From Pseudomonadota bacterium (lineage in GTDB: Bacteria > Myxococcota_A > Polyangia > Polyangiales > Polyangiaceae): 64,000 nucleotides of DNA. A model generated the notes under the pieces. The model was not told the DNA's origin. It worked only from the letters and a program-made list of their open reading frames with translations, and did not search any database. The stretch is taken from assembly GCA_023418705.1 (NCBI GenBank), contig JAEZYZ010000062.1, positions 17,875-81,874 of the forward strand. The letters are read 5' to 3'. Of this stretch, positions 10,019 through 37,807 are shown piece after piece; within the stretch, counting starts at the first letter, position 1; every line of letters starts with the position of its first letter. Position numbers and translations under genes: made by a program.

Positions 10019-11221
10019 TCAGAGATCGAGCGGCCTTGGCGAGAGCGTCAGACCGACGAAGCCCGCCCAGATCGGCTCGAACCCTTGGTCGTCGAGGACG
10101 CCGCCGATCTCGAAGTCCTGCCAGACCACCGATAGGCCGGTGTCCACGGAGAGCTCTGGGGCAATCTGGTAGATGGCGCCGACGGAGGCGCCGTAGCTGG
10201 TGAGCGAGACCTCGCTGTTGCCGCCCAGCGAGCGTGTCCCGGAGGTCGAGCCAACCAGGGTCCAAAAGCCACGGGTGCGGCTCACCGCGGCGCTCCACAG
10301 CACCCGCTGGTCGACGCCGCCCGTCGTTCGATCGACGACGGGGGACACGCTGACGTTGAAGGTCAGGCCGAACCGATCGAGCTCGCGCGCCACCGAATAA
10401 TCCATGCCGGCGCTGCCCGCCGGAAGGAGCTGAGTGTCGCCGCCGGGGAGATCGTCGTCCTCGAACCGGGTCCACGCCAGCCCGGCACCGACCGACCCGG
10501 TCCAGGTCGTGCTGAAGCGGTGCGACCAGACCTCCTCCAGGCTCACGATGACGGCCTTCTCGTCCGGCTCGGTCACCGAGTAGCGCCCGTCGAGTCGCGT
10601 CGACAGGCCGTCGTTACGGCTGAGCGCGTAGCCGAGCCCGACGCCGCCGTAGCCCTGCCGCTGCAGCGGGTAGGCCGCGCGGGAGACGTTGTTCAGGCCG
10701 CCGCTGACCGAATACCCAACGAACTCCGACAGCCCCCAGCGGCGCGACAGCACGTGGCTGAGGCCGAGGGAAGTGTTCGAGGAGCCGATGCGCACCACCT
10801 GGTCGACCGCGCGGGTCTGGGTGACCGACGGATCGGGGGGCGGCGTGGTGGGATCGGGGCTCTCGGCGGGTGCTTCGGGGGCGGAGAGCGTCAGCGCGTC
10901 GAGCCGCAGGTTGCGGCGCCCATAGCCCGCCGACTGCATGAGCGAGAGGGTCGTCCTGCGGAAGCGGAGGTTGGCGGCCGCCGTCAGGTTGTGGAACACC
11001 ACGAGCTCGGCGTCGGGATCCTGGAACGAGAACAGCGTGATCGTCGGCGCGTAGGTGAGGGAGTACGAGGTTCGGGGCGTGGTGAGCGCCAGGGTCACCG
11101 AAGGGCTCGTCTGGGCGTCGAAGTCGAGCTCACCATCGAATTCACGCCCGCGCAGCTCCGTGCGGTCTGCGGCGCCAAGCGTCAGCGCCTGCGCCAAGAT
11201 GGGAGCGAAGAGCGGCAGCAT
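10019..11221 (-). CDS. predicted outer-membrane beta-barrel protein, partner of the adjacent short OPX protein
   Basis: 400 aa. Signal-peptide-like start (MLPLFAPILAQALTLGA), then about 380 aa of alternating beta-strand-like segments rich in G/S/T/Y/R (YSLTYAPTITLFSF, GVGLGYALSRNDGLSTRLDGRYSV, TSYGASVGAIYQIAPELSVDTGLSVVWQDF). No enzyme motifs. It starts 20 nt after the OPX stop. Confidence 0.6.
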   Translation of the reverse strand: MLPLFAPILAQALTLGAADRTELRGREFDGELDFDAQTSPSVTLALTTPRTSYSLTYAPTITLFSFQDPDAELVVFHNLTAAANLRFRRTTLSLMQSAGYGRRNLRLDALTLSAPEAPAESPDPTTPPPDPSVTQTRAVDQVVRIGSSNTSLGLSHVLSRRWGLSEFVGYSVSGGLNNVSRAAYPLQRQGYGGVGLGYALSRNDGLSTRLDGRYSVTEPDEKAVIVSLEEVWSHRFSTTWTGSVGAGLAWTRFEDDDLPGGDTQLLPAGSAGMDYSVARELDRFGLTFNVSVSPVVDRTTGGVDQRVLWSAAVSRTRGFWTLVGSTSGTRSLGGNSEVSLTSYGASVGAIYQIAPELSVDTGLSVVWQDFEIGGVLDDQGFEPIWAGFVGLTLSPRPLDL

Positions 11222-11241: not shown

Positions 11242-11841
11242 CTACTCGGCAACGACGACGTCGCCCGACTGCAGCTTGAAGCGCTGGACGTGCTGCGCTC
11301 CGCGCAGAATGTCCACGTAGTCGAAGCGAATGCGCTGTCCGTCACGCAAGACGTACACGGCCGTCTCGTCGGCGAACTCGGTCAAGCCGCCGGCCTCGGC
11401 CATGGCGTCGATCAGGCGCGCGGGGGGCGGCAGCGCGAAGCGCCCGGTCTCTCGCACTTCCCCGAGCACGGTGACCTGAACGGTCGACTCCTCGATCACG
11501 ACGATGACGTGGGGCTCCGCCACGAACGGCTTCAGCAGCTGCTCGAGCTCGCGAGCGGCGGCCGACGGGAGCTTGCCCGCGAGCTGCTGCTCGCCCAGAA
11601 GCGGGATGGCCACGAGCCCGTCGCTTCGGACCCGCGCTCGCACGGACATGGGCTCCTGACCGAAGACGCGGACGCTCACGACGTCTCCAGGGCGGATGAC
11701 CTCGGGGTGGATGGGCGCCGCCGCGGGCTGATAGCTCTCCGCGCGGACGTAGGTGCCGCTGCCGCGGCAAGCCGCCATGAAAAACGCGGCGCCCGCCACC
11801 AACAAGAGAAGGCCGTGCCGGAGTCGAAGCTGGTGACGCAT
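11242..11841 (-). CDS. short outer-membrane polysaccharide export (OPX, Wza-like) lipoprotein
   Basis: Poly_export-type segment (VIRPGDVVSVRVFGQEP...[33 protein letters not shown]) and one SLBB-like segment (VTVLGEVRETGRFALPPPARLIDAMAEAGGLTEFAD). Lipobox FFMAAC. At only ~200 aa it has no Wza-type C-terminal membrane helix. Three in-frame ATGs (11880, 11853, 11841); the last gives the best signal peptide. Confidence 0.85.
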   Translation of the reverse strand: MRHQLRLRHGLLLLVAGAAFFMAACRGSGTYVRAESYQPAAAPIHPEVIRPGDVVSVRVFGQEPMSVRARVRSDGLVAIPLLGEQQLAGKLPSAAARELEQLLKPFVAEPHVIVVIEESTVQVTVLGEVRETGRFALPPPARLIDAMAEAGGLTEFADETAVYVLRDGQRIRFDYVDILRGAQHVQRFKLQSGDVVVAE

Positions 11842-12128
11842 GCGAAATTCCATCGTGGCTGATCGGGCGGATGAAAACATGGAATCGCGGCGTGGGCAAT
11901 CGCCCGGAGGGCGCGCCGGAGCCGATCGTTCGGGCGGTCTCGAGCTCCCGAGCCGGGTCGGGGAACCGGCCCGCCCGCGCTCATCCGGAGGCGGCTCCGC
12001 GCCGCCCGAGAGCGCGCCCGAGCATCACCCGAGCATCAGGGGGATCGCTTTGCCTCGCCTTCGAGCGTGATCTAGCGTTTACTGTTTTGGGGGCACGCGT
12101 CTCCCGCCACCCTGAGCCCGACCCATCG

Positions 12129-13313
12129 ATGTTAGCTCTCGACGTCCTGCTGATGGCTGCCAGCGCGCCTCTCGTGTGCTTCGCGGCCTACCTGTGCCTG
12201 CTCGCGCTCCTGGCTCGCAGAAATCCCGAAGCGTCCGGCTCGGGAACGACCCGCTTCGCCGTCGTCGTGCCGGCACACGACGAGGAGCTCGGCATCACGC
12301 GTACCGTCGAGAGCCTCTTGGCGCTCGACTACGACGCGGACCGGTTCGAAATCGTGGTGGTGGCCGACAACTGCAGCGATCGGACGGCCGAGCTCGCCGC
12401 GGCGGCCGGCGCCCGGGTCCTCGTTCGGCAGCACGCCACCGAGCGGGGCAAGGGCTACGCGCTGAACTTCGCCTTCGAGCGGTTGATGGAGGAGCAGCGG
12501 TTCGATGCCTTCGTGGTCGTCGACGCGGACACGGGCGTCTCGCCGAACTTGCTCACCGCGGTCGCCGCTCGGCTGGAGCGAGGCGCCCACGCCGTGCAGG
12601 CGCATTACCGGGTCCAGAACCCGATGGATTCCTGGCGCACGCGCCTGATGGTGCTCGCCCTGGCGCTGTTTCACGACGTGCGGTCGCTGGCGCGGGAGCG
12701 GCTCGGGCTCTCGGTGGGGCTGCGCGGCAACGGCATGGCGTTCTCCAGAGCGCTCTTGGAGCGAGTGCCGCACACGGCGTTCTCGATCGTGGAAGATCTG
12801 GAGTACGGCATCCGCATCGGTATGGAGGGCTACCGCGTCCACTACGCCGAGGAGGCGGCCGTCTTCGGCGACATGGTGGCGGGCGAGCGGGACTCTCGAT
12901 CGCAGCGAGAGCGCTGGGAGGCCGGGCGGCGCGCCATCCGCCGGCAGCTCGCCGGACCCTTGCTGGTGCGCGCGCTGAAGACGCGCGACCCGGTGCTCTT
13001 CGACCTGGCGATGGACCTCCTGGTGCTCCCGCTGGCGGCGCTGGCGGGCTGGGTCGCGCTCGGCCTCGGCGCGGCGGGGGCGTCGGTGGCGCTGCTCGCG
13101 CGCCCGGTGTGGCTGATCGCGCCTTGGGCGGCGGCCGCGGCGGCGATGACCGTGTATGTCGGGCGCGGCATCTCGATCTCCGGCTTGGGGATGCGGGGGG
13201 TCGCGGCCTTGCTGTGGGCTCCCGTCTACCTGATCTGGAAAGTGGCCTTGCGCATCCGTAGCCTGGGTGCGTCGCAGCGCGAGTGGGTCCGGACGGCACG
13301 CGCAGGGAAGTAG
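12129..13313 (+). CDS. membrane-embedded family-2 glycosyltransferase with processive-synthase motif set
   Basis: N-terminal TM helix, then VVVPAHDEE (D), VVVDADTG (DxD), SIVEDLEYG (ED) and SQRERWEAG (QRxRW), followed by 3-4 C-terminal TM helices. ATG at 12129 chosen. The track ORF starting at 11871 adds an Arg/Pro-rich, non-protein-like leader. Confidence 0.85.
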   Translation: MLALDVLLMAASAPLVCFAAYLCLLALLARRNPEASGSGTTRFAVVVPAHDEELGITRTVESLLALDYDADRFEIVVVADNCSDRTAELAAAAGARVLVRQHATERGKGYALNFAFERLMEEQRFDAFVVVDADTGVSPNLLTAVAARLERGAHAVQAHYRVQNPMDSWRTRLMVLALALFHDVRSLARERLGLSVGLRGNGMAFSRALLERVPHTAFSIVEDLEYGIRIGMEGYRVHYAEEAAVFGDMVAGERDSRSQRERWEAGRRAIRRQLAGPLLVRALKTRDPVLFDLAMDLLVLPLAALAGWVALGLGAAGASVALLARPVWLIAPWAAAAAAMTVYVGRGISISGLGMRGVAALLWAPVYLIWKVALRIRSLGASQREWVRTARAGK

Positions 13314-13322
13314 GCGCGGGGC

Positions 13323-14858
13323 ATGGCGGCGGTCACGGCGGCGCTGGGAGCGGCACGCGCACGGAGCATCCCGCGGGACGCGTTCTTGTGGCCGTCCATC
13401 CTGATCGTGCTGCTGATCTTCGTCGGGTGTTGGATCGCCGATCAGGTCGGGTCCAACGTCCTCATCTTCGCGGTCCTCTGGGGACCTTTGCTGTATCGCT
13501 ACGTCCTGGCGGCGCCCGTGCACCTGTCGGCGCGGGTGATGTTCCTGCTCGCGCTGGTGCTGGAGCCGCCCGCGGAGCAGCCCGGCTACGGCTACTGGAC
13601 GTCGGTGCTCGCGCCGGCCAGCCAGATCTACTACGACGCCCTCAAGGCCTGGGCGGGGATCCCCGGCCTGTCGTTTTCGCTCTACACGCTGCTGTGCCTG
13701 GTGCTGTACTTCCGGGCGACGCGCGGCCGCAAGGCGCCGGGGTATGTCGCGCCGCCGCCGGAGGCGGTGAAGGCCGTCAAGCTCTGGTTGCTCGCGCTGA
13801 CGCTGCTCTTGATCTGGGGCCTGATCCGCGGCGGCAACGGCAAGGCCGCGTTTTTCCAGCTTCAGCACCTGTACACGCTGGGGTTTTGCGCGCTGGCGTT
13901 CTTGCACGCGCTGCGCGGTCCGGCAGATCTGCGAGCCCTCGGGACGATCGTGGTGGTGGCGGCCATCACCAAGGGTCTGCTGGTCGGGTGGGTGTACTAC
14001 GTCGTCTGCGCCCCGATGGGGTTGAAGCCGTTTTACGCCACGACCCACTCCGACTCGGTGACCTTCGCGATGTGCATCATCATCCTGGCCACGCGCTTGT
14101 TCGAAGAGCGCGACGGGCGGAGCCTGCGCCTGTTCCTGTGCATCGTGCCGTTCATCGTGATGGCGATCGTGATGAACAACCGGCGCCTCGCCTTCGTCGG
14201 CGTGGGCTTCGGGGTGGTGACGACCTACGCGGTGATGAAATCAGGCCGCCTCAAGCGAAAGATCGCGCGCATCGCCCTGGCGCTCGCCCCGCTGGTGGTC
14301 GTCTACGTGAAGGTGGGCGGCCACTCGACGAACCCGCTGTTTGCGCCGGCGGCGATGGTCAACTCCGCCCTCAGCGGGACCGACAGCTCGTCGATCACCC
14401 GCGACATCGAGAACTACAACCTGATCTTCACCATGAACCAGCAGGGCCGGATCTTGGGCACGGGGTTCGGTCACGAGTACATCGAAGCCGTCCGGGCCGA
14501 CGACATTTCCCAGGCCTTCGCGCTTTATCGCTACATCCCGCACAACAGCGTGCTCTGGCTGTGGAGCTTCGGCGGGCTGATCGGGTTCACGGCGCTGTGG
14601 ATGGTCTACCCGCTCTTGGCGTACTTCGGGGCGCGGGGCTACCACGGCAGCCTGGATCCGATCGAGCGCGCCGCGGGGCTGACGACGCTGGCCGGCGCCA
14701 TGACCCTGATGGCGCAAAATTGGGGGGACATGGGCTTGCAGAGCTACACGAGCCTGACGGTGTTCGGCATCTGCTACGCGGTGGCGGCCAAGTTGTGCAT
14801 GGCCGCCGACAGCCGCCGCGCCAGCGCGCCCGCCGCCACGGCGAGCGTCGCGCGTTGA
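13323..14858 (+). CDS. Wzy-like polymerase / O-antigen-ligase-family polytopic membrane protein
   Basis: 511 aa with at least 10 hydrophobic helices. Large loop followed by ILGTGFGHEY...YRYIPHNSVLWLWSFGGLIGF, resembling the Wzy_C / O-antigen ligase signature. It starts 10 nt after the GT2 stop. Confidence 0.7.
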   Translation: MAAVTAALGAARARSIPRDAFLWPSILIVLLIFVGCWIADQVGSNVLIFAVLWGPLLYRYVLAAPVHLSARVMFLLALVLEPPAEQPGYGYWTSVLAPASQIYYDALKAWAGIPGLSFSLYTLLCLVLYFRATRGRKAPGYVAPPPEAVKAVKLWLLALTLLLIWGLIRGGNGKAAFFQLQHLYTLGFCALAFLHALRGPADLRALGTIVVVAAITKGLLVGWVYYVVCAPMGLKPFYATTHSDSVTFAMCIIILATRLFEERDGRSLRLFLCIVPFIVMAIVMNNRRLAFVGVGFGVVTTYAVMKSGRLKRKIARIALALAPLVVVYVKVGGHSTNPLFAPAAMVNSALSGTDSSSITRDIENYNLIFTMNQQGRILGTGFGHEYIEAVRADDISQAFALYRYIPHNSVLWLWSFGGLIGFTALWMVYPLLAYFGARGYHGSLDPIERAAGLTTLAGAMTLMAQNWGDMGLQSYTSLTVFGICYAVAAKLCMAADSRRASAPAATASVAR

Positions 14859-14875
14859 ATGTCGCCAGGCGCCCG

Positions 14876-15046
14876 TCAGTGCAGCCGCGGGTACAAGTAC
14901 AAGAGGCCAAACAGGTAGAAGGCGCAGTACGCCGTCATCCACTTGAGCGTGAACTTGAACCCATCCTGCCGGCGTTCGAAGCGCGCTGCCCGGATCGGGA
15001 TGATCAGCGCCATGAACATGATCGAGAGCAAGAGGAGCTTCTGCAT
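14876..15046 (-). CDS. small two-helix membrane protein (56 aa), below the ORF-track cutoff
   Basis: ATG at 15046-15044 to TGA at 14878-14876. Sequence: MQKLLLLSIMFMALIIPIRAARFERRQDGFKFTLKWMTAYCAFYLFGLLYLYPRLH. Two hydrophobic helices with a basic loop. Convergent with the Wzy-like gene. Confidence 0.3.
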   Translation of the reverse strand: MQKLLLLSIMFMALIIPIRAARFERRQDGFKFTLKWMTAYCAFYLFGLLYLYPRLH

Positions 15047-15135
15047 GGCTGGCGACCGTGATCATGACGTCAGCGCGGGTCGACGGCAACGGTCTCCTTG
15101 GCGACGGCAGCGCGATGAGCGCTGCTTGATTTTCG

Positions 15136-15430
15136 TTCACAGGAAGGAACGGAAGGACGGAAGATTCTGGGAGTTCGGACCGACGACGTCGGCCCCCCCT
15201 TCCGAGCTTCCGCTCTCCTATGAAAACGAGGTCCGAAGTACGCACCACGAGCGCCCTTGAATTTTTCACAGGAAGGGCGGAAGAGCAGAAGATTTTGGGA
15301 TTGGGGATGAGGTCCGAAGCGGGCGTGGGTGCGTGGGTCGTCACAGCGATTCACGTCGCGCCGGTCGAATCGACGCCGATCGGGGACCGACGACCTCGGT
15401 CCCCCTTCCGATCTTCCGACCTTTCTGTAA
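15136..15430. repeat. cluster of purine-rich direct and inverted repeats in a 537-bp intergenic region
   Basis: - TTCACAGGAAGG..GGAAG...GAAGATTYTGGGA occurs at 15136-15172 and 15265-15300, with an inverted version at 15400-15430.
- GGACCGACGAC(G/C)TCGG(C/T)CCCCC..TTCCGA.CTTCCG occurs at 15177-15212 and 15384-15418.
- GAGGTCCGAAG occurs twice (about 15228 and 15309).
- Embedded palindrome CCGACGACGTCGG. Confidence 0.6.
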
Positions 15431-15583
15431 ACAATCTCCGAGCCAGACTGGTCGACACAGCTCGCTGTCTCGGTCGTGAAATCCGTTTTTCACCGACTCG
15501 AGGTGGGCCGAAGGCCCTGATGGTCTTCCTGTGCTGATCTCCGATCGAGACCCTCGACGCACCTCGCTGTCTCAGCGAGGCGC

Positions 15584-18500
15584 TCACGGCCGCCGGCGGC
15601 GATCGAGCATGGCCTGGCGCAGCCGCTGTCGCTCGGCGCCGCGCTCGGCGCTTTGGTCGAGCGCCCCGGTCGAGGCGGCGTCGCCTTCGGCCAGAAAGCG
15701 CGCCAGACCCCGGATCGTGGGGTACCGGAACAGGTCGACCAGCTGCAGCGGGCGGCTGACCTTCGGCTTCAACTTGCCGAGCAGCTGGACGGTGAGCAGG
15801 GAGTGGCCGCCGAGATCGAAGAAGTTGTCGTCCACGCCCACCGCGGGCAGCTTCAGCACCTCGCGCCACATCTCGGCGATGAGCAGCTCGTGCTCGCTGC
15901 TCGGCCGCTCGCGCTCCGCCAGCGGCGCCTTCTGTTGCTGCTCGGGTGCCGGCAGGGCGTTGCGATCGAGCTTCTTGTTGGGCGTCTGCGGGAACGCGGT
16001 CATCGGCACGATCGCGGCCGGCAGCATGTAGTCCGGGAGGCGCTCGGCCAGGTGTTGCTTGAGCGCGCTCGTGTCGACGCCGCCGCCGTCGGGGATGACG
16101 TAGGCCACCAGGCGCTTGTCGCCTTGCGTGTCCTCTCGGGCGAGCACGACCGCCTGACGCACCGCCGGGTGCTCGGTCAACAGGGCCTCGATCTCGCCGA
16201 GCTCGATCCGGTAGCCGCGGATCTTGACCTGGTGGTCGGCTCGACCGCGGTAGCGTAGAACGCCGCTTGGATCGACGGTCGCGACGTCTCCCGTGCGGTA
16301 GGCGCGCGCGCCCGGGCGGAAGGGGTGGGCGACGAACCGGCTCGCCGTGAGCTCGGGCCGGCCGAGGTAGCCGCGGGTCACGCCGTCGCCGGCGATCAAG
16401 AGCTCGCCGTCTTCGCCGGGGGGCAGCAGGTTGCCGCAGCGGTCGACCACGAACGCCTCTTGATTGTGCAAGGGGCGTCCAATCGGGATGTCGGTCGAGG
16501 ACTCGGTGACCTCGTGCGAGGTCGACCACACCGTCGTCTCGGTCGGACCGTAGACGTTGATGAGCCTGCCTGGGAGCGCTCGCCGCAGGTCAGCAGCCAG
16601 CGCGCCGCCGAGCGCCTCCCCGCCGACCAGCAGCGTCTGCAGCTCCCCCAAGCGCGCGCGCGTCTCGTCGTCGCCGACCAACATGCTGGCCATCGAGGGC
16701 GTGCACTGCAGGTGGGTGACGCCATGCCGCTCGATGAGCTCCGCCAGCGTGGCATCCGCTTCGTCCACGTCGCTGTTGCAGCGAGCGTGCACCTCCGCCA
16801 AAAGCGGCAGGTTCTGCAGCACCTGATCGGTGGGGACCCCGAAGTCGATCAGGCAGGCGATTTCGTCGACGTCGGATCGCCGCACGGCGTCGACGATGCC
16901 GAGCGCCGATTCCACGCTGCCGAACAGCCCGCTGGTCGCGTAATACCGCTCGAAGGCATGATCGAGCAGCGCGTCCATCTCCTCGGCGCTGAGGTTGTCG
17001 GTGGTGAAGGAGCCGCCGTCGAGCCGGTGTTTGAAGGCCGGGAACGACCAGGCGGCTTCTTTGATCAAGCCGACGGAGGTCCGCAGGTACTGCTTCATGG
17101 GCTCGCGGACCGCGCGCTTCACCGCCTCGTCGCTCTCCCCCACGAAGGTGTGGAGCATGAGCGACACGGTGCCGCGCCCGGGGTGACCCGCTTCGGTCCA
17201 GGCCTTGCGATAGATCCGAACCTTCTCGGTCAAATCGGCGAACGACTGACCGAGCAAGTGGGTCAACAGGTTGGCGCCGATGCGCCCCGCTCGCTCGAAC
17301 GTCTCGGGGCTGCCTGCCGCGGTCACCCAGACGGGCAGCTCCTTCTGCACCGGGCGGGGCAGCGTGCCGATGACCACCTCGCGCCCCTCTCCATTTCGGA
17401 AGGGCAACCGCTCTCCGCGCCAGAGGCGGCGCACCGTCTCGATCGCCTCGAACATGCCGTCTTTGCGGTCGGCAAACCCCTCCGGGCGGATGCAGAAATC
17501 ATTCGGCTGCCAGCCCGAGGCGAACGAAATCCCGACGCGGCCGTTCGACAGGTTGTCCACCAGCGCCCAGTCCTCCGCGATGCGGATCGGCGAGTGCAGC
17601 GGCGAGACACAGCTGCCGGCCCGCAGCGCCACGCGCTTGGTGATCATCGCCAGCGCCGCGTTCGTCACGGCGGGGTTCGGATAGAGGCCGCCGAAGGCGT
17701 GGAAGTGCCGCTCTGGCGTCCACACGGCGACAAACCCGTTTTCGTCGGCGAAGCGCGCCCCTTCGGTCAACAGCCGATAGCGATCGCCGCCTTGGGCGTT
17801 CTCGTCGGCGGAGAAGTAGAACGCCGAGAAGTCGACGCGGCGCGCGTTCTTGGCCCCCGCGGACACCGTGCCCGAGGAGACGACCACGTGAAAGCCGTGG
17901 GTCAACGTCCAGAGCAGCTCGAGCACCGAGATGTCGAAGGACAGGCTCGTGACCGCCAGCCAGGTCCCCGGCTTCTCGGGCCGGAGCACCTCATCCATGC
18001 CGCGGAAGAAGTTGACCACGTTGCGGTGCTCCACCATTACGCCCTTGGGGCGCCCCGTGGAGCCCGACGTGTAGATGACGTAGGCCAGGTGATGGCCTTC
18101 GACGCCGCTCTGGGGCGGGCTCGCTGCACCGTCGTCGACGCTCCCGTCGTCCACGACGATCTTGTCCAGGCGACCCAGACCGCTCCGGCCTTGGTGCGCT
18201 CGGTCGGTCAGCAAGAGCGTGAGCGCTGCGTCTTCGATCACCAGCCGGAGGCGCTCCTCGGGGTAGCGCGGATCCAGCGGGACGTACGCGCCGCCTGCCT
18301 TGTGGATGGCCAGGAGGCTCACCAGCAGGTGCACGCTCCGATCCATGAAGACGCCGACCAGCGTGTCGGGCCCGACCCCGCGCTGCTGCAGCCGATGCGC
18401 CAAGGCGTTGGCGCGGGCGTCGAGCTCGGCGTAGGTCAGGGTCACGCCGCGGGCGGTCACCGCCGGTCGATCCGGCGTCCGCGCGGCTTGCGCGGCGATC

Positions 18501-20137
18501 AGCACGTGCAGGCACGCGGGACCGTCGAGCGGCTCGGCAGGAGGGTTGAGCTGTCGTAGCAGCGCCGCTTCCTCCTCGCTGACGAGTGGCACAGCCGAGA
18601 GCGGGACATTGGCCGTCGGCGCGTGCTCGAGGAAGACCCCGAGGCGCGCGGCGATCGAGCGGAGGCGCGCCTCCGAGCAGCGCGCCACGAGGCGCAGCCG
18701 CCCAGCTTTCGTGTTCACGCAGAGCAAGAGATCCCGTGTCGCGTCCGGCGGCTCGGGATCGACATCGACGAGCACCGCGACAGCGAGCGGCGCCGGGGCT
18801 TGTCCGCTCCTCAGCGCCAGGTCCACCGGATGCGGCTCGGTTTGGCTGAGCCGCAGCCGCTCGCGTTCGATGCTCTCGACGGCGGCTCCGACGCCGAGGG
18901 TCGGCGATAGGCTCAGGCGCAGCGGGGACGCGCCAGCGAGCAAGCGGGGCGCCATGGCTTGCTTGTCGCGCAGGGCCGGATCGGCATAGGCGACGTCGAG
19001 CTCGAAGCACTGGCAATAGCGCGCCAAAAAGGCGAGGCCGAAGGCCGCGGCGTGGGACGCCGGTACGCCCGGCGCAAGGGGCACCTCGATCGAACGTTCG
19101 GGGGCGGCCGGGTCTGGGTTGAGGTCGAGCGACGGATTGTTCGGCGCCCGCAAGATCGCGGCAAAGCGCGGCTCGTGCCGGGCGGCGGCCTTGGCGGCCG
19201 CTTCGAAGCGCGCTTTGAGCTCCGCGTCGACGAGCGGGAGCTTGCTGCCCACCTCGATGCCGGCGGCGCGCAACGCCTCGGCCGTGAGCGGCTGCCCGTC
19301 GGTCAGGCGCAGCCCGGAGAGCCGAACGCCGGTGGTCGAGCTGGCGACCACCAGCGCGTCGCCGTCCACCTGGAGGACGGTCCCCGGCGTCCCCGTCGAA
19401 GCTTCGGGATGGGCTCGGGACACGAGCAGGACGCCGCTGGGGGTGAGCAGCTTGGCGCACCCGACGGGGTTTGGATACGTGCCAAAGTCGAGCGCGCGCA
19501 CGACGCGGACGATCGCGTCGGCCGCTTCGTCGAAGCAGAGCACGCCGGCGGCCGGCGGTCGCTCGGAGGCCCCGAAATAGGTGCGCTGCGAAGGGTCCTG
19601 AGCCTTCGGCTCCAGCGTGCCGGAGACGATGGCCTCGGTGAGGTCCCGGAAGCTCTCGATCCCGGCCGTGAAGCATTTGGCGTTGAGGCTGAACGCGGTC
19701 TCGTCCGCGGCGACCTCGAACGACCGCTGGATGAAAATGCGCCCGGCGTCCGCCTGCGCCGTCATCTCGTGCCAGGTCACGGCGTGCGTCGGCTCGCCGT
19801 TGAGCAGCGCCCAGACCGGGGCGTTGAGGCCGGCATACCGGGGCAGCGGCCCGTCGTGGAAGTTCACCGCGAAGCGCCGCGCCCGCTCGAGCAGCTCCGC
19901 CGGCAGGATGCGGAAGTTGACCACCGAGAACAGCACATCGAAGGGCTCCGCCGCGGCCGCGCTCGTCAGCTCGCCGGGATCGATGACCCGCAGCCGTTGC
20001 TCGCGAGCCCACTCGACGACGGTGGGTTCGCGGCTGGCGATGCCGCGGATCCGCTGTCCGGCGTGCTGCCAGATCTCGACCGCCTGAATCAGCAGCGTGG
20101 CTTCACCGACGAACCAGGCTTCAAGCGGGCTCTGCAT
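15584..20137 (-). CDS. NRPS: formyltransferase-like / condensation C-lobe only / A domain (Gly-type code) split by luciferase-like monooxygenase / PCP
   Basis: 1517 aa. ATG at 20137 overlaps the PKS stop by 17 nt. Domains by motif:
- Fmt-like domain (aa 1-300, nt ~19238-20137) with [13 protein letters not shown] and ...ADAGRI, so the N/H/D triad is present.
- C-lobe-like segment without HHxxxDG (aa ~320-530, nt ~18548-19180).
- A-domain motifs A1-A4 ([35 protein letters not shown]; nt ~17873-18520).
- LLM insert of ~355 aa ([10 protein letters not shown]...[12 protein letters not shown]...[19 protein letters not shown]; nt ~16778-17845).
- A5-A10 ([38 protein letters not shown]; nt ~15938-16765).
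- PCP (FFDLGGHS; nt ~15683-15904).
There is no C-terminal release domain. Confidence 0.95.
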
Positions 20138-23100
20138 GGGATGACCTCGATACGGGCGGCAAGGGTCCGGGCGCCTCTTCGAGAGCGCGCTTCAGGTGCG
20201 CCGTCAGCACGCTCACGTTTGGCTCCAGGATCAGGCTATCGTGGGTGCCGGGGACCTCGACGATCTCGAGCCCCGGCAAGAGGCCGTCCCAACCGAGGGT
20301 CGGCCCGACATGTTGAAACACCTCCGCGACGCGGTCGGCGCGGAACAGGATCACGCGACCTTCGTAGCGGCGCGCGCGGTAGCGCGCCGAGGCTTCGTAG
20401 AAGCTGCGCGTCAGCTGCAGCTCTCGGAGCTCCAGCGGCAGCGGCTGCTGCTGGCTGAGGTAGAAGCGGAGCTTGAGCTCGGCGGACAGCTCGTTCAGGT
20501 GACGGGACCACTTGGCCCGGCTGCGCTCGGACAGGTACGCGGTGCCGCCCTGGAGCAGCTTGGTGATCCGATCGGCGAGGGCGGGCTTGCGCGGGCGGGT
20601 CGAGGGCTCGAACGTGTCGAACAGCACGACGAGCCGCACCTGCTTGCCCTGGGCGATCAGCTGGTGGGCCATCTCGAGCGCCACCACCCCGCCCCCGGAA
20701 TAGCCGCCGAGCACGTACGGTCCCGAGTGGTCGATTTGCGATAGCTGCTCGACGTACAAACGGCCCATGTCCTCGATGGTCTGAAGGGGCGTCTCCCCGT
20801 TCACGCCCAGCGCCTGCAGCCCGTAAAACGCCTGATTCGAGGGGAGCCGCCGCGCCAGGTCGTAGAAGTTCAACACGTTGCCGCCCGCGCCGTGGACGCA
20901 GATGAACGGCGGTCGTTCCGGGCTGCCCTTTTGGATCAAGACCAGGGGGTTGAAGCCGTCGTGGGCTGCGGGACGCCCGTTCGGGCGCTCCGGCGCGGCG
21001 CGGCCGTTCTTCGGGACCTCGAGGGTCTTGCCGAGCCGCTCGCGCAGGATGTCGGCGCACTGCTCGATGGTCGGCGCCTGGAAGAGCACGGCGAGCGAGA
21101 GATCGACCCCGTGCGTCTTCTTGATCCGCGAAAATAGCCTCACCGCGATCAGGGAATGCCCGCCGAGCTCGAAGAAGTTGTCGTGAATGCCGACGCTGGA
21201 GACGCCGAGCAAGGCGCACCACATCTCCGCCAGGCTCCGCTCGATCTCGTCGCGCGGGGCATCCTCCCGCTGCGCTTCCGCCGTCGGGGCGCTGGGGCGC
21301 GCCTCGACGCGCGCTGGCTTCAGATCGGCGGCGAGGGTCTCGAGCGGAACGGGCGTGGCGACGACTTCGCCGCGCCAGCCGCTTCGCAGCACGCGATCGA
21401 CGACCCGGAGGCCCTCTTCCAGGGTGAGCCCCTCCTCGAACCAGCGCTCGAGCGGCGAGGGGGCCGTGGCGGGGGCAGCTGGGGCGGTGAGCGCGCGGGC
21501 GGGCATGCTCTTGGTCACATAGCCGTCGATGGTGGCGACGACCTTCCCGTCGAGGTCCGCCAGCTGCAGGTCGAAGACGGCGACGCCGTCGGACCCGGGC
21601 GCCGATCTCAGCCGCACGTGGCTCATCAGCTCGGCGGGCAGCGGGGCGCGGATCGTCAAGCGCTCGTACGAGAGGGGGATCCGCAGCAGGTCTGCCGCGT
21701 CGCCCGTGTCCGCCAGCGAGAAGGCGAACCCCGACGCCATGTCGAGCAGGCCGGGGTGCAGCGCGTAGTTCGCCTGCTCCCCGCGGAGCTCCTCGGGCAG
21801 ACGCAAGAGGGCGAGCGCCTCGTCCGTCCCGAAGTGCATCTCGCGGATCACCTGCCAGTGCCGACCGAGGGCCAGGTGGCGGTCCTGAGGCAGCTCCTGG
21901 CGCTCCTCGAAACGCTGGCTTCGGTGGCCGCAGCGGCGGCGGATGGCGTCGAGATCGAGCGGCGCCGGCGCCGGCGCCTGGTCGACGCGCAGGCTCCCTC
22001 GAGCGTGCTCGACCGCGCTCGGCTCGCCCTTCCCACGGCTCGAGATGGTCACGGTCACCGTCGCCGGCTCGGAGCGCACGTCGGTCACCACCTCCAGCTG
22101 CCGCTCGGCGCCGTCCGGGATCGACAGCGGGCGCGCAAACAGCAGATCGCTGAGCTCGAGCGCGGCGGCGTCGGGCAAACCGAGCGCCCGGGCGCCCGCA
22201 GCGCGAACGATCTCCACGAAGCCGGTGCCGGGCAGCACGGCCGTGCCACCCCGCACGCGGTGCTGATCCATCACCCACAGCGCGCGCGGGGAGTAGGTAG
22301 CCCGAAACCCGAGCTGGTCCATGCGCTCGCGGTGCAGGCGGCCTAGCAGCGGGTGTCCCACGACGTCACCTTCGGCGGGCGCCTCGACGCGCGAGAGCGC
22401 GCGCGCCGCCATCCCCACCTCCTTCCAGACGCCGAAGCCCAGGCTGAGCACGCGCGTCCCGGCTTCGGAGTAGCGCCGGGCGAGCTCCCGTCCGAGCGCG
22501 TTGAGGTAGCTGTTGGCGGCGGCGTAGTCGATCTGCCCGGGAGGGCCGAGCACCGCGCTCGTCGAAGAGATGAGCAGCAGCAGCGCGGGCGGATCTTGGG
22601 CGAGCGCCTCGACCAGGTGGCGGCTGGCGTCGAGCTTCGGGGCGAGGACAGCGCGGGCCGCGGCGCGCGTCTTCACCGCGAGGGGCGCGTCGTCGAGGAC
22701 GCCGGCCGCCTGCACGACGACGTCGACGCGACCGAAGCGGGCCTTCACCCGGTCGAGCAGGGCATCGGTCTCCGCCCGGGAGGCGAGGTCGCCACTCTCG
22801 ACGACCACCTCATGGCCCGCTGCGCTGAGCTCGAGCAACAGCTTGAGCTTGCCGGCGAGCGGATCGCTCGAGCCGAGCTCCTCGAGCACCTCGGCCCAGT
22901 GTTCTCGCTCCGGAAACGGATGGCGTGTGACAAGGACCAGGCGAGCGTTCAGCGTGTCCGCGAAGTGCTTGGCCAAGGTGCTGCCGATGCCGCCGAGGCC
23001 GCCAGCGATCAGGACGATGGGCTCGGGGGGCAGGGGAGCGCCGGCGTCCGAAGCCGGGGCGTGGGTGAAGATCTGGGCGAGGCGCCGTCCGTCGCGTTCG

Positions 23101-26100
23101 GTCGTGACCTCGTGAACCTCCGACGCCGCGGCCTCGAGCAGGACGGAGCGCGCGGTGGCCTCGCTGTCTTGCAGGGCCGGCACCTCGAACAGGACGGCCC
23201 TGACCTCCGGCAGCTCCTTGGGGATGACCCGCACCGGGCCCTCCGCCAGCGCCGCCAGGGCGCCCGAGCTGCCGCCGCCGTCGTCGAAGACCCCCGAGCA
23301 AGCCACCAGCAGGCGCGTGTCGGGATGCAGGCTCTCGCGGGCGAGCGCTTGAGCCAGGTGCAAGAGCGAATAAAAACAGCGGTCGAGCGCGGGCTCGAGG
23401 GGAGCTTCGGGGGATCGCAGCTCGGGGGACAGGCAGAGCGTGTGCACGATCCGGGCGGGGACTCCGGCGTCGCTGACGACGTGCTGAAGCAGCGTCTCGT
23501 AGTCTTCCGGATGGGCGAGCCTCAGCTGATACCGTCCCCGTTCGAGCCGCTCGGTCGTGGCTCCGGGCGTCACGATCGCGGGTTTTATACCGCGCGCGCG
23601 CAGCTCGAGCTCGAGCGCCCGGCAGAGCGGCCCTTCGTCGGCGAACAGCAGCCACACCTCGGCCGGATCGAAGGTCGTGGCTCCGCGATCCGCTTCGGAG
23701 AAGCTCGGCTGGAAAAACCATTTGGAGGCGTCGGGCTCCCGCCGAGCGGAGGGCGCGTCCTCGGCGGCGCCAAAGTAGCCCTTGCCCGGCTCGATCCAGT
23801 AGGGCTCGTGCTCGAAGGGCGTCGCCGGCAGCGGAACGATCGTCCGCGGGGTGTTCAGCAAGCGCTCGAAATCGACGCTCCCACCGTGGGCTGCGATCCG
23901 GCCGACGCTCGTGACCAGGGTCGTCACATCCGATGAGCGATCCTTCGCGTGCGGAGAGACCGGGACCACCGGGCGCTGTTGGTTCGCGCGCAGGGTGGAG
24001 GTCAGGGTCTGGCCTGGACCGACCTCGACGAAGATCGCGTCCGGGTGACGCTCGAGCACACCGGCGACCCCGGCGGCGAAGCGAACGGTCTCTCTCAGGT
24101 GACGGACCAGGTAGCGCGCGTCGATCTCTGCCGCTTCGGGGAAACGGCCGCTCAAGTTGGACACGAAGGGGATGCGCGGCGCGTGAAAGGTCACGCCGGT
24201 CAGCGCCGCCGCGAACTCATCGAGGATCGGATCGAGCAGCGGCGAGTGGGCGGGCACGTCGATGCGCAGGCGCGTGGGGTGCACGTCCTGGGCGAGCAGA
24301 TCGCGCTCCAGGCGCTCGAGCGCCTCCGAGCTGCCGGAGACGACGCAGAGGTCGGGGGCGTTGATGGCGGCGATCGACAGCTCGCCCTCGAGCAAGGGGG
24401 CGAGCTGTTCACTCGGCATCGGCACCGACAGCATGCCGCCGCGCCGAACCTTCTCGAACAGGCGACCCCGGCAGCAGACGACGGCCAGCGCTGCGCCCAG
24501 CTCCAGGACCCCGGAAAGGTGGAGCGCGGCGTACTCCCCCAGCGAGTGGCCGATCAAGGCCGCCGGGCGCACTCCCCAGTGATCGAGCAGGCGCGCGTAG
24601 GCGATCTCGATCGAGAACAGGGCCGGCAGCGCCAGGGAGGGACGCTCGAGCTCCCGCGCCGCGGCCGATACGTCCCCATCCACGAAGAGCAGGGGACGAA
24701 GATCGATGTTTTCTTGCCGCTCGAGGACGCTCAAGCATTCGTCGAGCGCGTCGCGAAAAACGGCTTCGCTCTCGTAGACCTCGCGGGCCATGTTGGGGTA
24801 TTGCGCGCCCCCGCCCGGAAACACGAACACCACGCTAGCGGCTTCACCTGGGGCGTGCACATCGAAGACGCGCGCCGTGTCCGGCCGGGCCAAGAGCTCA
24901 GCGGCCTCCGACGAGCTCTTGGCGGCGAGCACCCGCCGGTGAGCGAAGCGGCGCCGGCCGCGGAGCAAGGTCGAGCTCACCTCGGACAGCACCAGGTCCG
25001 GATGCTCGGCGAGGTGCGCGCTCAGGCGCGCGGCGTACTCGTCGAGGGACCCCTGGCTGCGCGCCGCGAGCAACAAAAGCTGCGGCTTGTCACTCGCGGC
25101 GGGTGACCGCCGCCGCGGCGCTTCTTCGAGGATGGCGTGCGCGTTGGTGCCGCCGACGCCGAGCGAGCTGACGCCGGCGCGTCGTGGCCCGGTGCCCTTC
25201 GGCCACGGCGCCCGCTCGTGCACCACGTAGAACGGGCTCGCCGCGAAGTCGATCTGCGGGTTGGGTCGCTCGAAATGCAGGGTCGGGGCGAGCTGCTCGT
25301 GCTCCAGCATTTGAGCGACCTTGATCAAGCTCGCGACGCCCGCCGCGGTGTCCAGGTGGCCGATGTTCGACTTGACCGACCCGACGCCGCAGTAGCCGCG
25401 GTCGTCGTTCGTGCGGGAGAAGGCGCGCGTGAGCGCCGTCAGCTCGATGGGATCGCCCACCGGCGTCCCGGTGCCGTGGCATTCGACGTAGGAAATGTCG
25501 CGGGCAGTTAGCCCCGCCACCTGGAGCGCTTCGACCACGCACTCCGCCTGACCATCGACCGATGGTGCCAGGTAGCCGATCTTGCGGCTGCCGTCGTTGT
25601 TGACCGACGTGCCCTTGATGAGCGCGTGGATGTAGTCACCGTCGGCGATGGCGTCCGCCAGGCGCTTCAGGACGACGACCCCCGCACCGGATCCGAACAC
25701 GGTTCCTTTGGAGCGCTCTTCGAAGGGGCGGCAGTGGCCGTCGGGCGAGAGGATTTCACCCTCTTCGTAGAAGTAGCCGCGGCCGTGGGGCAGCTCGAGC
25801 GTCACGCCCCCGGCCAGCGCCACGCCGCATTCTCCGGAGAGCAGGCTCTGGCAGGCCATGTGAACGGCCACCAGCGAGGTCGAGCAGGCGGTCTGGACGT
25901 TGATGGACGGCCCCTTCAGATCGAGGCAGTAGGAGACCCGGGTGGCCAGAAAGTCCTTGTCGTTGCCGGTGTGCCGGACGAGGAACAACCCCATCGACTG
26001 CATGAGGTCGGGGTTGGTGAACAGGTGGTAGGGCAGGTAGGCGTTCATGCCAGAGCCGGCGAACAAGCCGATCGGGATCGCCGCGGCCTCGGGCAGGATG

Positions 26101-26444
26101 CCGGCGCTCTCGAGCGCCTCCCAGCACACCTCCAGGAAATGGCGGTGCTGCGGATCCAGCACGCTGGCTTCGCGCGGAGAGAAGCCGAAAAACTTGGGAT
26201 CGAACAGCGAGAGGCCGTCGATCGGCGCCGTCGCCCTCACGTAGCGAGGATCGGTGAGGTGCGCGTCGGGCACGCCGGCGCGGCGCAGCGCCTCGGCGCT
26301 CGGGAACTGGATGCTCTCCACTCCGTCGCGCAGGTTCGCCCAGAAGCGGAACACGTCCGGCGCTCCTGGGAACCGAGCTGCCATGCCCACGATGGCGATG
26401 TCCGTACTCTGTAGTTGATCGTCGTCGACGTCGTATGCGCCCAT
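20121..26444 (-). CDS. type I PKS: KS / AT / KR / DH / PCP-type carrier / thioesterase
   Basis: 2107 aa, ATG at 26444. Domains by motif:
- KS (TACSTS, ECHGTGT, SNIGH; nt ~25125-26405).
- AT (GHSLGE, with VPAHS where HAFH/YASH normally sits; nt ~23865-24833).
- KR ([13 protein letters not shown] in [16 protein letters not shown]; nt ~22395-23732).
- DH ([23 protein letters not shown]; nt ~21501-22361).
- Carrier (FFELGGHS; nt ~21030-21251).
- TE (GYSGGG, PGTHDS; nt ~20175-20957). Confidence 0.95.
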
Positions 26445-26508: not shown

Positions 26509-27927
26509 TCAGTACGCGTTGCTGCGAACTTTGCGCCCGAACACGGTCAAGAAAATGATGCGCAGATCCAGTCCGAGGTCCCAGTTCTGGATGTAGTAGA
26601 GGTCGTGCTCGAGGCGCTTCTCCATCTTGTCGAGCGTCTCGGTCTCTCCGCGCCAGCCGTTCACCTGCGCCCAGCCGGTGATGCCCGGCTTGACCTTGTG
26701 GCGCAGCATGTAGCGGTAGATCTGGGAGCGGTAGAGCTCGTTGTGGGCGACGGCGTGCGGCCGCGGACCGACGATCGACATCTGCCCTGCCAGCACGTTG
26801 AAGAACTGCGGCAGCTCATCGAGCGAGGTGCGCCGCAAGAACGCGCCGAGCGGGGTGATGCGGCTGTCGCCCTTCTTGGCCTGACGTACCGTGTCGCCGT
26901 CTTCGCAGACGGTCATGGTACGAAACTTCAGCACGGGGATTTCTTTGCCGTTCAGGCCGTAGCGCCGCTGAACGAAAAATACCGGCCCCGGCGACGTGAG
27001 CTTGATCAGGATGGCGATGACGACCATCGGCAGGCTGATCAGCAGCAGGATCAACGTCCCGAGCACGATGTCTTCCAGCCGCTTCACCCACCCGCCGAGA
27101 CCATGAAACGGGGTGTGTTGGATCGCGACCACGGGAACGTCCCCGAGGCTCGACCATTGCGCTTGCAACAGATCGAACACGAAAAAATCGCCCACGACGA
27201 AGACCGACGCGGTCGTGTCCGACAGGCGCTGCAACAGGTCGTTGATCCGAGACTCGGCGCGCAGGGGCAGCGCGATGTAGACGTAGTCGACCGGGTTGTC
27301 CTTCATGTGGACGAGCAGCTCGTCGAACCCACCTTTGAACTCGGCGTATTGCTCGCTCATCTTGTGGCGGCGCGACTCGATACGATCGTCGTAGAACCCG
27401 ACTACCTGCATACCGACAGCGGGATCGGCCATGTGCTCGCAAAGGCGCTCGGCCGCGCGGGTCATGCCCAGGATGGCGACGGTGCGCGAGTTGCGGCCGC
27501 GCCGGCGCAGCTCCTGCAGAAAGAAGCGGACCGCCAGCCGCCAGACGGCCAGCAAGTTGGGGGTCAGCAGGAACCAGCCCACGGTGATGACGCGTGAGAA
27601 GTTCTCCGTTTGTTTGGTCGCGAACCCCAGAAACAGCAAGACTGGAATGACGCAGACCCACGTCAGGACCACCTGGGTCAGCTCACTGACCACCGGATCT
27701 CCCCGCCAGGCGCGGTAGAGGCCGTTCAACTCGGACGCCAGGTAGAAGGCGATCACGGCCACGCAGCTGGCGACCGTGTCCTCGAGCCGCCAGCCCTGGT
27801 CGTATCCCCAAACCAGGGCGTACAGGCCGACGACGATGAAAATGGCGTCTGTGATGCGCTGCCCCATCGTGATGAGGGGCGCGTAGGTTTTCAGGAAGCC
27901 GTCTTTGATGCCGCGCTGCTCAGTCAT
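26509..27927 (-). CDS. polyprenyl-phosphate hexose-1-phosphate transferase (WcaJ/WbaP-type priming glycosyltransferase)
   Basis: N-terminal TM helices, then the C-terminal bacterial sugar transferase domain: SPGPVFFVQRRYGLNGKEIPVLKFRTM, SLDELPQFFNVLAGQMSIVGPRP, KPGITGWAQVNG. ATG at 27927 preferred over the TTG at 27942. Confidence 0.9.
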   Translation of the reverse strand: MTEQRGIKDGFLKTYAPLITMGQRITDAIFIVVGLYALVWGYDQGWRLEDTVASCVAVIAFYLASELNGLYRAWRGDPVVSELTQVVLTWVCVIPVLLFLGFATKQTENFSRVITVGWFLLTPNLLAVWRLAVRFFLQELRRRGRNSRTVAILGMTRAAERLCEHMADPAVGMQVVGFYDDRIESRRHKMSEQYAEFKGGFDELLVHMKDNPVDYVYIALPLRAESRINDLLQRLSDTTASVFVVGDFFVFDLLQAQWSSLGDVPVVAIQHTPFHGLGGWVKRLEDIVLGTLILLLISLPMVVIAILIKLTSPGPVFFVQRRYGLNGKEIPVLKFRTMTVCEDGDTVRQAKKGDSRITPLGAFLRRTSLDELPQFFNVLAGQMSIVGPRPHAVAHNELYRSQIYRYMLRHKVKPGITGWAQVNGWRGETETLDKMEKRLEHDLYYIQNWDLGLDLRIIFLTVFGRKVRSNAY

Positions 27928-28260
27928 CTGACACTCGTGCAACTTCGACCAAAGCGCGAGAAGTCGCTCACTCTTATCTACCGAAATCGGGGTCTGGGGT
28001 AAATAGTGGACTCACACCGGCACCTCGGGATTGTCTCGGATTCAGCTCCTTTTTGTTTCCCCGGTCTCGTGTCGACCTGGGGTCGGCCGGTCTCCGCCGG
28101 CCTAGTTCAAGCCGCGGCTTGGGCTTTGTTCTTCCTTTTTTCGCGCCGCAGCGCGGCCTAGCTAAATGCGCCCGGGCGCTCGGCGCCCGCGAAGAAACGA
28201 CCTCCGAGCGGATCGTTCACGATGGGACCGCGGCCTTGCCGTGTCGAGTTCGGGGTGGAC

Positions 28261-37774: not shown

Positions 37775-37807
37775 GCTGAAGGCCTCGGATTTCGCGTCCC
37801 TGGCGGC

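Follow-up and report, generated by a model that had tools for sequence, protein, structure and literature searches.

The subject of this work is a minus-strand open reading frame (ORF) at positions 15584-20137 of a 64,000-nucleotide stretch of DNA (hereafter, the window) from a Pseudomonadota bacterium that GTDB assigns to the Polyangiaceae (assembly GCA_023418705.1, contig JAEZYZ010000062.1, positions 17,875 to 81,874 of the forward strand). The ORF codes for a nonribosomal peptide synthetase (NRPS) which, on balance, we take to be the loading module of a two-protein assembly line, where it is paired with a type I polyketide synthase (PKS) within an exopolysaccharide locus; the chemical steps proposed for this line below are read from domain identities, the conservation of catalytic residues, the overlap of the two genes and the family-wide pairing of the NRPS with a PKS. 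The NRPS is one more member of a large family that is already present in databases and in the literature and for which we found no characterized product. What is new here is the domain-level description: an ArnA-like formyltransferase, one half of a condensation domain, a glycine-type adenylation domain that carries a putative α-hydroxylase, and a docking-type tail for a partner built of ketosynthase (KS), acyltransferase (AT), ketoreductase (KR), dehydratase (DH), peptidyl carrier protein (PCP) and thioesterase (TE) domains.

The frame is intact from its ATG start over 1517 amino acids (aa), and the translation, together with Pfam and NCBIfam matches that are all far beyond chance, gives the order F–ΔC–A[LLM]–PCP, where F is the formyltransferase domain, ΔC a truncated condensation (C) domain, A the adenylation domain and LLM a luciferase-like FMN monooxygenase. 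The F domain (aa 1-300; 19238..20137) consists of an N-terminal catalytic and a C-terminal OB-like subdomain, matched by Formyl_trans_N (aa 54-157, E 1e-13) and Formyl_trans_C (aa 197-288, 26.3 bits against a cut-off of 21.1). It is followed by ΔC (aa ~320-540; 18518..19180) and by the two parts of the A domain, A1-A4 (aa 545-769; 17831..18505) and A5-A10 (aa 1117-1400; 15938..16789), which are covered by AMP-binding at aa 548-758 and ~1122-1331 (E 1.3e-90 for both parts together) and by AMP-binding_C at aa 1315-1389. The LLM (aa 770-1116; 16790..17830) matches TIGR04020 over model positions 1-340 of 341 with 506.6 bits (cut-off 244.45, E 3e-152) and sits between SFDISVLE (A4) and INVYGPTE (A5). 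The PCP (aa ~1415-1485; 15683..15895; PP-binding at aa 1420-1482) carries Ser1446 in LGGHSL, and the protein ends with a basic tail (aa ~1486-1517; 15587-15682). The domain content is thus as an earlier, sequence-only reading of this DNA had described it, including the interruption of the A domain between A4 and A5, and profile searches with Formyl_trans_N/C, TIGR04020 and AMP-binding bear it out; the motifs quoted in that reading are all found in the translation (a 14-residue stretch at aa 90-103, ADAGRI at aa 129-134, SFDISVLE, and the 12-residue motifs of A5 and the LLM). The minus strand is a detail that it did not give.

The specificity code of the A domain was re-read independently from the A4, TPS, GGE, A5 and A10 motifs as D-I-L-Q-L-G-V-V-W-K, the same code that had been read by hand before: SFDISVLE supplies D, I and L at positions 235, 236 and 239, and Q, L, G, V, V, W and K follow at positions 278-517. 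We take DILQLGVVWK to be a glycine code by hand comparison with the published Stachelhaus and NRPSpredictor codes. In our alignment of 70 full-length proteins, which also underlies the residue conservation given below, every homologue has the code DILQxGM(I/V)WK. Those LLM-bearing members with divergent architectures that were checked, L033 and P0127, have the glycine code as well, and P0095, which has no LLM, has DFWNIGMVHK, which we take to be a threonine code; the link between LLM and glycine is not exclusive, since L066 has a glycine code and no LLM. Among solved structures, the closest relative of the LLM, and one that it matches over the whole length, is the monooxygenase domain of PuwE (PDB 6KET, E 1e-104), to which the 2-hydroxyl of the β-amino acyl chain of puwainaphycin, bound to its carrier as an acyl thioester, has been assigned (PMC4219810). 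Unlike the LLM described here, the PuwE domain does not interrupt an A domain but stands between modules of the PKS and NRPS types, and its substrate is a β-amino fatty acyl chain.

Among solved sequences, the F domain is nearest to the formyltransferase domain of ArnA (E 4e-19); tRNA formyltransferases are also close, HypX matches at ~1e-5, and the match to the F domain of LgrA stops at residue 170 of the chain. With the N-terminal domain of ArnA and methionyl-tRNA formyltransferase it shares the two-subdomain fold, the N-x-H...D triad and the folate-site motif; it differs from ArnA in being fused to an NRPS module and in the absence of a decarboxylase domain. An AlphaFold2 model of aa 1-545 has a pLDDT of 93.4 and a pTM of 0.89, and the part up to residue ~310 fits the Fmt and ArnA structures with target-normalised TM scores of 0.8-0.85. 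The Foldseek ranking of the 545-aa model is filled by formyltransferase matches and so speaks to the fold of F and not to that of the ΔC lobe. The Asn/His/Asp triad, noted as occupied in the sequence-only reading, is N92, H94 and D130 and is kept in 69 of the 70 homologues, as is the PCP serine; one 11-residue motif of the module is invariant among the homologues compared.

The ~240 residues between the F and A domains are more than a linker. A profile built from 11 homologues and compared with the PDB matches residues 265-465 of McyB at E 6e-10, and also PvdL, Txo2 and CDA-C1, all in the C-terminal half of a condensation domain. No HHxxxD or HxxxDG motif is found in this stretch in any of the 70 homologues, and since the match is to the C-terminal half only and the motif is absent throughout, we consider the stretch to be half of a C domain devoid of its catalytic lobe. 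The earlier statement that a catalytic C domain is lacking therefore stands, with only the C-terminal lobe present. Pfam applied to aa 300-545 alone gives no match for the window sequence and a Condensation match for one of the 11 homologues. The ΔC probably acts as a scaffold by which the formyltransferase is positioned on the A-PCP unit. It stays with the A domain in Deinococcus, where the formyltransferase is a separate ORF: on a plasmid of Deinococcus actinosclerus (locus L005), a formyltransferase ORF of 304 aa (11785-12699) lies ~250 bp upstream of a ΔC-A[LLM]-PCP ORF (12945-17108), an arrangement that divides the protein naturally where F meets ΔC.

The sequence-only reading had found no release domain, which is correct for the NRPS ORF itself and incorrect for the system, as a TE ends the overlapping upstream PKS gene. 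This gene (20121..26444, minus strand; Pfam) codes for 2107 aa with the domain order KS-AT-(ψKR)KR-DH-PCP-TE, and the last 17 nt of the gene overlap the start of the NRPS; the TE, which would be the release domain for the pair, occupies 20205..20909 (PF00975 at aa 1846-1949, E 1.9e-25). In the locus comparison, for which 80 loci were kept, a PKS of the same domain order adjoins the NRPS in 53 of 58 informative loci, in many phyla and in either gene order, and the module can hardly be the stand-alone unit without release that had been envisaged. The motifs read directly in the PKS are TACSTS, HGTGT and NIGH of the KS (Cys/His/His), GHSLG of the AT, GGLGGIG, LDD and YAAAN of the KR, HPLLG of the DH and GYSGG of the TE. 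From its motifs we read the KR as one of the B type, and the closest solved relatives of the KR and DH are the modular PKS domains of PksJ, MlnE, CurK and MAS. The carrier domain of the PKS (21051-21236, minus strand) is PCP-like (FFELGGHSL) and not ACP-like, and the PCP-TE part matches the end of EntF.

The PKS begins with its KS and has no loading domain, while the NRPS has neither a working C domain nor a TE, an arrangement most simply read as loading of the PKS by the NRPS; the overlap of its start with a PKS gene that ends in a TE leads to the same assignment of ORF 15584-20137 as a loading module. The opposite order, with the PKS acting before the NRPS, was rejected, as the NRPS has no functional C domain to take a chain. 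The C-terminal 30 residues of the NRPS form a strongly basic tail, which includes one 16-residue stretch, and the PKS opens with acidic residues, which include one 10-residue stretch. Over 54 homologous pairs, the mean net charge is +5.1 for the NRPS tail and −2.5 for the PKS head. The basic tail and the acidic head are a probable docking pair, as judged from these charges. This charge pattern is shared by the 54 NRPS/PKS pairs, as is a DRAAxRR-like motif (in the window, tail at 15587-15682 and PKS N-terminus at 26385-26444).

The mechanism that we propose begins with the A domain, which, going by its code, would very likely activate glycine and load it onto the PCP. The ArnA/Fmt-like F domain would then N-formylate the glycyl-S-PCP with N10-formyl-tetrahydrofolate, a step that is likely by analogy to the F domains of the LgrA type and of the CongA/OzmO/PtxE type, for which it is held to occur. 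The inserted FMN-dependent LLM could next hydroxylate Cα of the N-formylglycyl thioester in the way proposed for MtaG and MelG, and we lean slightly towards this assignment. The starter unit would be N-formyl-α-hydroxyglycyl-S-PCP or, after the loss of formamide, glyoxylyl-S-PCP, and it would move to the KS of the overlapping PKS, possibly steered by the basic NRPS tail and the acidic PKS head. There, malonate would be added, the B-type KR would reduce and the DH dehydrate the product to an (E)-enoyl thioester, and the TE would release or transfer it, a sequence of events that is reasonably probable. A single round of extension would give a C4 skeleton, i.e., a 4-formamido-4-hydroxybut-2-enoyl or a 4-oxobut-2-enoyl unit.

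The fusion of F and LLM in one protein is far from the rarity that the earlier reading implied. An exhaustive HMMER search with aa 1-545 as a query against 1.84 billion cluster representatives (50% identity) returned 1390 cluster proteins at E<=1e-30, most of the full-length ones being 1520-1600 aa long, and a scan of GTDB, with one genome per species and the family peptides NFHDGPLP and AGLN..xWA, yielded at least 578 species genomes with a confirmed relative. The NCBI pipeline already names the family: in RefSeq, the relatives are called 'MupA/Atu3671 family FMN-dependent luciferase-like monooxygenase', and genes for a type I polyketide synthase and a glycosyltransferase adjoin them. The matches listed come from about ten phyla and include Myxococcota, Planctomycetota, Chloroflexota, Dormibacterota, Acidobacteriota, Gemmatimonadota, Bacteroidota, a spirochaete and Alpha- and Betaproteobacteria; among these matches, the one nearest to the NRPS comes from a Polyangiaceae metagenome-assembled genome. 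Full-length relatives on plasmids and chromids were found by tblastn in Aminobacter, Shinella, Rhizobium, Neorhizobium, Methylobacterium, Ruegeria, Aliiroseovarius, Parasedimentitalea and Paracoccus, all of them 42-49% identical to the query across 82-99% of its length, and there is one in Deinococcus with 47% identity across 77%. Within the family, F and LLM are in one ORF in nearly all loci, 76 of 78 homologous ORFs have F joined to A-PCP in one frame, and the LLM is present in 66 of the 68 loci with enough sequence.

The exceptions to the common architecture are informative. In Dormibacterota (L033, 6909-12404), the protein is F-ΔC-A[LLM]-PCP-TE and lacks a PKS, and its neighbors are an aldo/keto reductase and a PP-loop ATPase; in Gemmatimonadales (L075, 9875-14371), it is F-ΔC-A-PCP-TE, with no LLM, a GT2 glycosyltransferase directly upstream and an ABC-2 transporter and a GT4 nearby; and in Cytophagia (L066, 9962-13639), it is F-ΔC-A-PCP, in a locus with a priming transferase and a glycosyltransferase. 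P0095 also has the layout F-ΔC-A-PCP, whereas additions are seen in P0127, C-F-ΔC-A[LLM]-PCP, with an extra full C domain in front, and in P0138, F-ΔC-A[LLM][MT]-PCP, with an additional methyltransferase (MT) insert. It follows from these variants that the constant core is formyltransferase, ΔC and A-PCP, to which the LLM and the PKS are add-ons. In the variant that ends in a TE only, plain hydrolysis would produce a trivially small acid, which mildly favors transfer by the TE to an acceptor.

Judged by its gene content, the surroundings of the NRPS–PKS pair are those of a Wzx/Wzy-type exopolysaccharide locus. On the minus strand, the order is a priming undecaprenyl-phosphate glucose phosphotransferase of the WcaJ type (26509..27942; TIGR03023, 533.5 bits against a cut-off of 410.75), directly upstream of the PKS, then the PKS and the NRPS, and from the other side the pair is met by the convergent, plus-strand genes of a Wzy-type repeat-unit polymerase (13323..14858; Wzy_C, and NF041870 Wzy_EPS with 319.9 bits, below the cut-off) and an EpsU-like GT2 glycosyltransferase (11871..13313; NF041865 EpsU, 462.6 bits, below the equivalog cut-off of 700). 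Further genes of the locus code for a short OPX export protein (11242-11880, minus strand; Poly_export and SLBB), an EpsX-like outer-membrane barrel (10019-11221, minus strand; Pfam PF28089 and NF041842), a sugar epimerase/dehydratase (8775-9746) and rmlABCD-like functions (31746-32816 and 36354-38707). The EpsX, EpsU and Wzy_EPS models derive from the exopolysaccharide pathway of Myxococcus xanthus, and together with the Polyangiaceae match nearest to the NRPS they make an origin of the window in the Myxococcota probable.

Polysaccharide genes are the commonest neighbors across the family, and their association with the NRPS is frequent, not universal. Clustering of neighboring ORFs gave families of priming sugar-phosphate transferases (13 loci including the window), small GT2 glycosyltransferases (12 loci), EpsU-like GT2 (11 loci including the window, recurring in other phyla), a further GT2 (11 loci), phosphopantetheinyl transferases (PPTases; 10 loci), Wzx flippases (9 loci), WecG/TagA transferases and Wzz-like proteins (8 loci each), α/β-hydrolases encoded beside the formyltransferase gene (8 loci) and short OPX proteins (6 loci). 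The Pfam tally of 126 neighbor proteins from 20 loci is topped by Hydrolase_4, GT2, GT1/GT4, Bac_transf and ACPS, and a glycan-gene context is annotated in the loci of Ruegeria, Aminobacter, Paracoccus and Deinococcus. Going by this genomic company, the product may end on, or prime, a secreted glycan, an idea that we regard as plausible and somewhat short of probable. A more specific version, in which the pair is a glycan-tailoring or priming line and the TE, or a neighboring GT2 that uses the hydroxyl installed by the LLM, would join the small Cα-oxidised enoyl unit derived from glycine (as an N-formyl hemiaminal or a 4-oxo-enoyl electrophile) to the exopolysaccharide or to its lipid-linked repeat, is tentative and rather doubtful at present.

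The α/β-hydrolase of the eight loci is a protein of ~280 aa with a weak match to Hydrolase_4, and its gene is found directly beside the F end of the NRPS in Myxococcus (L011, 9088-9930), Brocadiaceae and Planctomycetota. The precomputed Pfam list of a Myxococcus protein of 580 aa (P0001) contains both Formyl_trans_N and Hydrolase_4, which suggests a formyltransferase/hydrolase fusion. Our guess is that the hydrolase is an editing thioesterase or a deformylase.

A cluster of this kind has been described in marine roseobacters. The PKS/NRPS cluster conserved in the Roseobacter lineage, found in 28 of 57 genomes and made up of genes for a polyketide synthase, a glycosyltransferase, an NRPS and a phosphopantetheinyl transferase (PMC4337385, PMC5014874), is credited to Martens et al., dated 2006 in one paper (PMC4337385) and 2007 in the other (PMC5014874); in these papers of 2015-2016, its product had 'not yet been characterized' (PMC4337385) or 'identified' (PMC5014874). 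We match our family to this cluster by gene content, gene order and taxa, and not by a common accession or by sequences from the papers, which give no domain content. In Ruegeria, Roseovarius, Thalassovita, Epibacterium and Yoonia, the loci consist of a PKS, a small GT2 and an F-ΔC-A[LLM]-PCP protein in this order and then, in most, a PPTase, as in the gene order of the papers; the NRPS architecture is the same as in the window, the partner is likewise KS-AT-KR-DH-PCP-TE, and the full-length identity to the window NRPS is ~42-47%. The window differs in that neither a small GT2 nor a PPTase adjoins the pair, which is instead located inside a Myxococcus-type Wzx/Wzy operon between the genes of the WcaJ-type transferase and the Wzy/EpsU-like proteins. 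The EpsU-like GT2 of the window, 2.3 kb from the NRPS, is distinct from the small (~330 aa) roseobacter GT2. An assignment of the latter as an ArnC-like polyprenyl-phosphate transferase was rejected, its best matches, which are weak, being a rhamnosyltransferase model and MftF.

The closest known relatives of the individual features were named in part by the sequence-only reading, and the precedents that it drew, MtaG/MelG for the insertion and LgrA for F-A-PCP initiation, are apt. In MtaG and MelG of the myxothiazol and melithiazol pathways, a monooxygenase inside a glycine A domain is proposed to hydroxylate Cα of an N-acylglycyl thioester (PMC11342130, PMC9396620), and here, too, a TIGR04020-type LLM separates A4 from A5 in an A domain of the glycine type. 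Those modules are, however, C-A[MOx]-PCP-TE (MOx, the monooxygenase), in which a complete C domain hands over a polyketide acyl chain and the line ends at this module with the formation of a carboxamide, whereas the window module has only the C-terminal lobe of C, has a formyltransferase to provide the N-acyl group, would start the line, and has its TE on another protein. The window protein also has the elements of LgrA-type initiation, i.e., an N-terminal domain of the formyltransferase fold that has the triad and the folate motif, and A and PCP after it (PMC4504003, PMC5764310). LgrA itself is F-A(Val)-PCP, and the window F domain keeps the C-terminal subdomain and is far nearer to ArnA than to the F domain of LgrA. 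Closer precedents are the F-A(Gly)-PCP modules of CongA, OzmO and PtxE, because they load formyl-glycine onto a PKS (PMC4504003, PMC5764310): together with RizA, they share with the window module an N-terminal F on a starter A-PCP, predicted glycine specificity and hand-over to a KS. In these systems, an ATP-dependent cyclodehydratase leads to an oxazole, and the A domain, unlike that of the window module, has no LLM. An oxazole pathway of the oxazolomycin/conglobatin kind was rejected, no cyclodehydratase-like gene being found among the window ORFs scanned. Our literature search, which was incomplete, returned no characterized example of the combination of formyltransferase and LLM and no paper on it.

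Several observations weigh against the proposed loading of a single-round PKS and its connection with a glycan. No product has been reported for any family member (PMC4337385, PMC5014874), nor did the same search find a later identification. The window itself contains no PPTase and no small GT2 of the roseobacter type by tblastn of both, the Myxococcus locus L011 has no homologue of our glycan reference set by BLAST, and in L033 no glycan gene is found among the five neighbors scanned. The F domain is far closer to a sugar-nucleotide enzyme, ArnA, than to the F domain of LgrA (E 2e-4), and KR before DH is unlike the order of canonical modular PKSs, so more than one extension is possible. This order recalls synthases of the iterative polyunsaturated fatty acid and enediyne types. 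If the KS-AT-KR-DH set, which has no enoylreductase, worked iteratively, it would extend the glycine-derived starter to a conjugated polyene acyl chain and thus give an amphiphilic acyl or lipid that anchors or decorates the polysaccharide. The single module that ends in a TE, the constant glycan context and the possibility that the TE acts as an acyltransferase fit this scheme, but no sequence feature demonstrates iteration and the nearest solved KR and DH relatives, mentioned above, belong to ordinary modular PKSs, which makes it unlikely. The kinship with ArnA raises another possibility, already voiced in the sequence-only reading, that the Fmt-like domain is a sugar N-formyltransferase acting on an amino sugar of the co-encoded glycan, with A[LLM]-PCP being a separate activity. 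The presence of both subdomains as in ArnA/Fmt, the polysaccharide locus and the free-standing ORF of Deinococcus are compatible with it. We nevertheless judge it to be quite improbable: the in-frame fusion to A-PCP is nearly invariant in the family and is kept in the simpler F-ΔC-A-PCP-TE variants, F travels with A-PCP into the non-glycan context of L033, sugar aminotransferases are rare nearby (DegT in 2 of the 126 neighbor proteins), and the model shows a rigid arrangement of F and ΔC with high confidence.

Formylation of the glycine, if it takes place, may also be traceless. The formyl group would then make glycine resemble an N-acylglycine for the LLM, the resulting hemiaminal would shed formamide, and the starter would be a glyoxylyl-S-PCP that is extended to a 4-oxobut-2-enoyl (fumaraldehyde-type) electrophile. 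The collapse of N-formyl-α-hydroxyglycyl-S-PCP to a glyoxylyl thioester and formamide, put forward in the sequence-only reading, is chemically reasonable and parallels the proposal for MtaG; for MtaG and MelG, the hydroxylated N-acylglycine is said to break up spontaneously, leaving glyoxylate bound to the T domain (PMC11342130, PMC9396620). The ΔC remnant would fit a descent from C-A[MOx]-PCP, with the formyltransferase having taken the place of the half of C that donates the acyl group, and the LLM does accompany the glycine code. On the other hand, N-acyl-α-hydroxyglycines can be isolated at neutral pH, and a separate lyase is required for the amidation of peptides. Given such stability, collapse before the transfer to the KS is not assured, and the PKS-less L033 protein would merely convert glycine to glyoxylate and formamide at the expense of ATP and formyl-tetrahydrofolate; a traceless formyl group seems to us rather unlikely. 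That the NRPS gene has decayed or become inactive in this genome, as the missing PPTase and small GT2 might indicate, is most improbable: all 1517 codons are in frame, all catalytic motifs are kept, the start overlaps an intact PKS stop and an identical protein is present on 5 independent contigs. On balance we retain the loading-module reading, in which the NRPS would hand a formylated and perhaps Cα-oxidized glycine unit to the PKS.

The domain description and the polysaccharide neighbors make the product question of the roseobacter NRPS/PKS cluster (Martens et al. 2007) testable in culturable hosts. Should the product decorate or prime an exopolysaccharide, it would bear on the biofilm and surface biology of marine roseobacters, rhizobia and myxobacteria. 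If the pair is indeed a glycan-tailoring line, it would represent an unrecognized and widespread class of NRPS/PKS-derived polysaccharide modification, loosely similar to the acylation of Nod factors, and would also account for the orphan Roseobacter cluster.

The same polysaccharide locus contains a second hybrid synthase of 2494 aa (1235-8719, minus strand), in which a truncated C-domain lobe is followed by A, PCP, KS, AT, an acyl carrier protein (ACP) and a class-III aminotransferase, and which has an α/β-hydrolase gene downstream (306-1238, minus strand). Its A domain matches TIGR01733 with 478 bits and has the hand-read code D-A-C-D-T-G-L-V-N-K, to which we assign no substrate; its layout is reminiscent of the β-amination logic of MycA and PuwE. 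The genes immediately upstream of that of the priming transferase code for a PhzF-family isomerase (28377-29288, minus strand) and a DUF4388-Ser/Thr kinase (29468-31603, minus strand).

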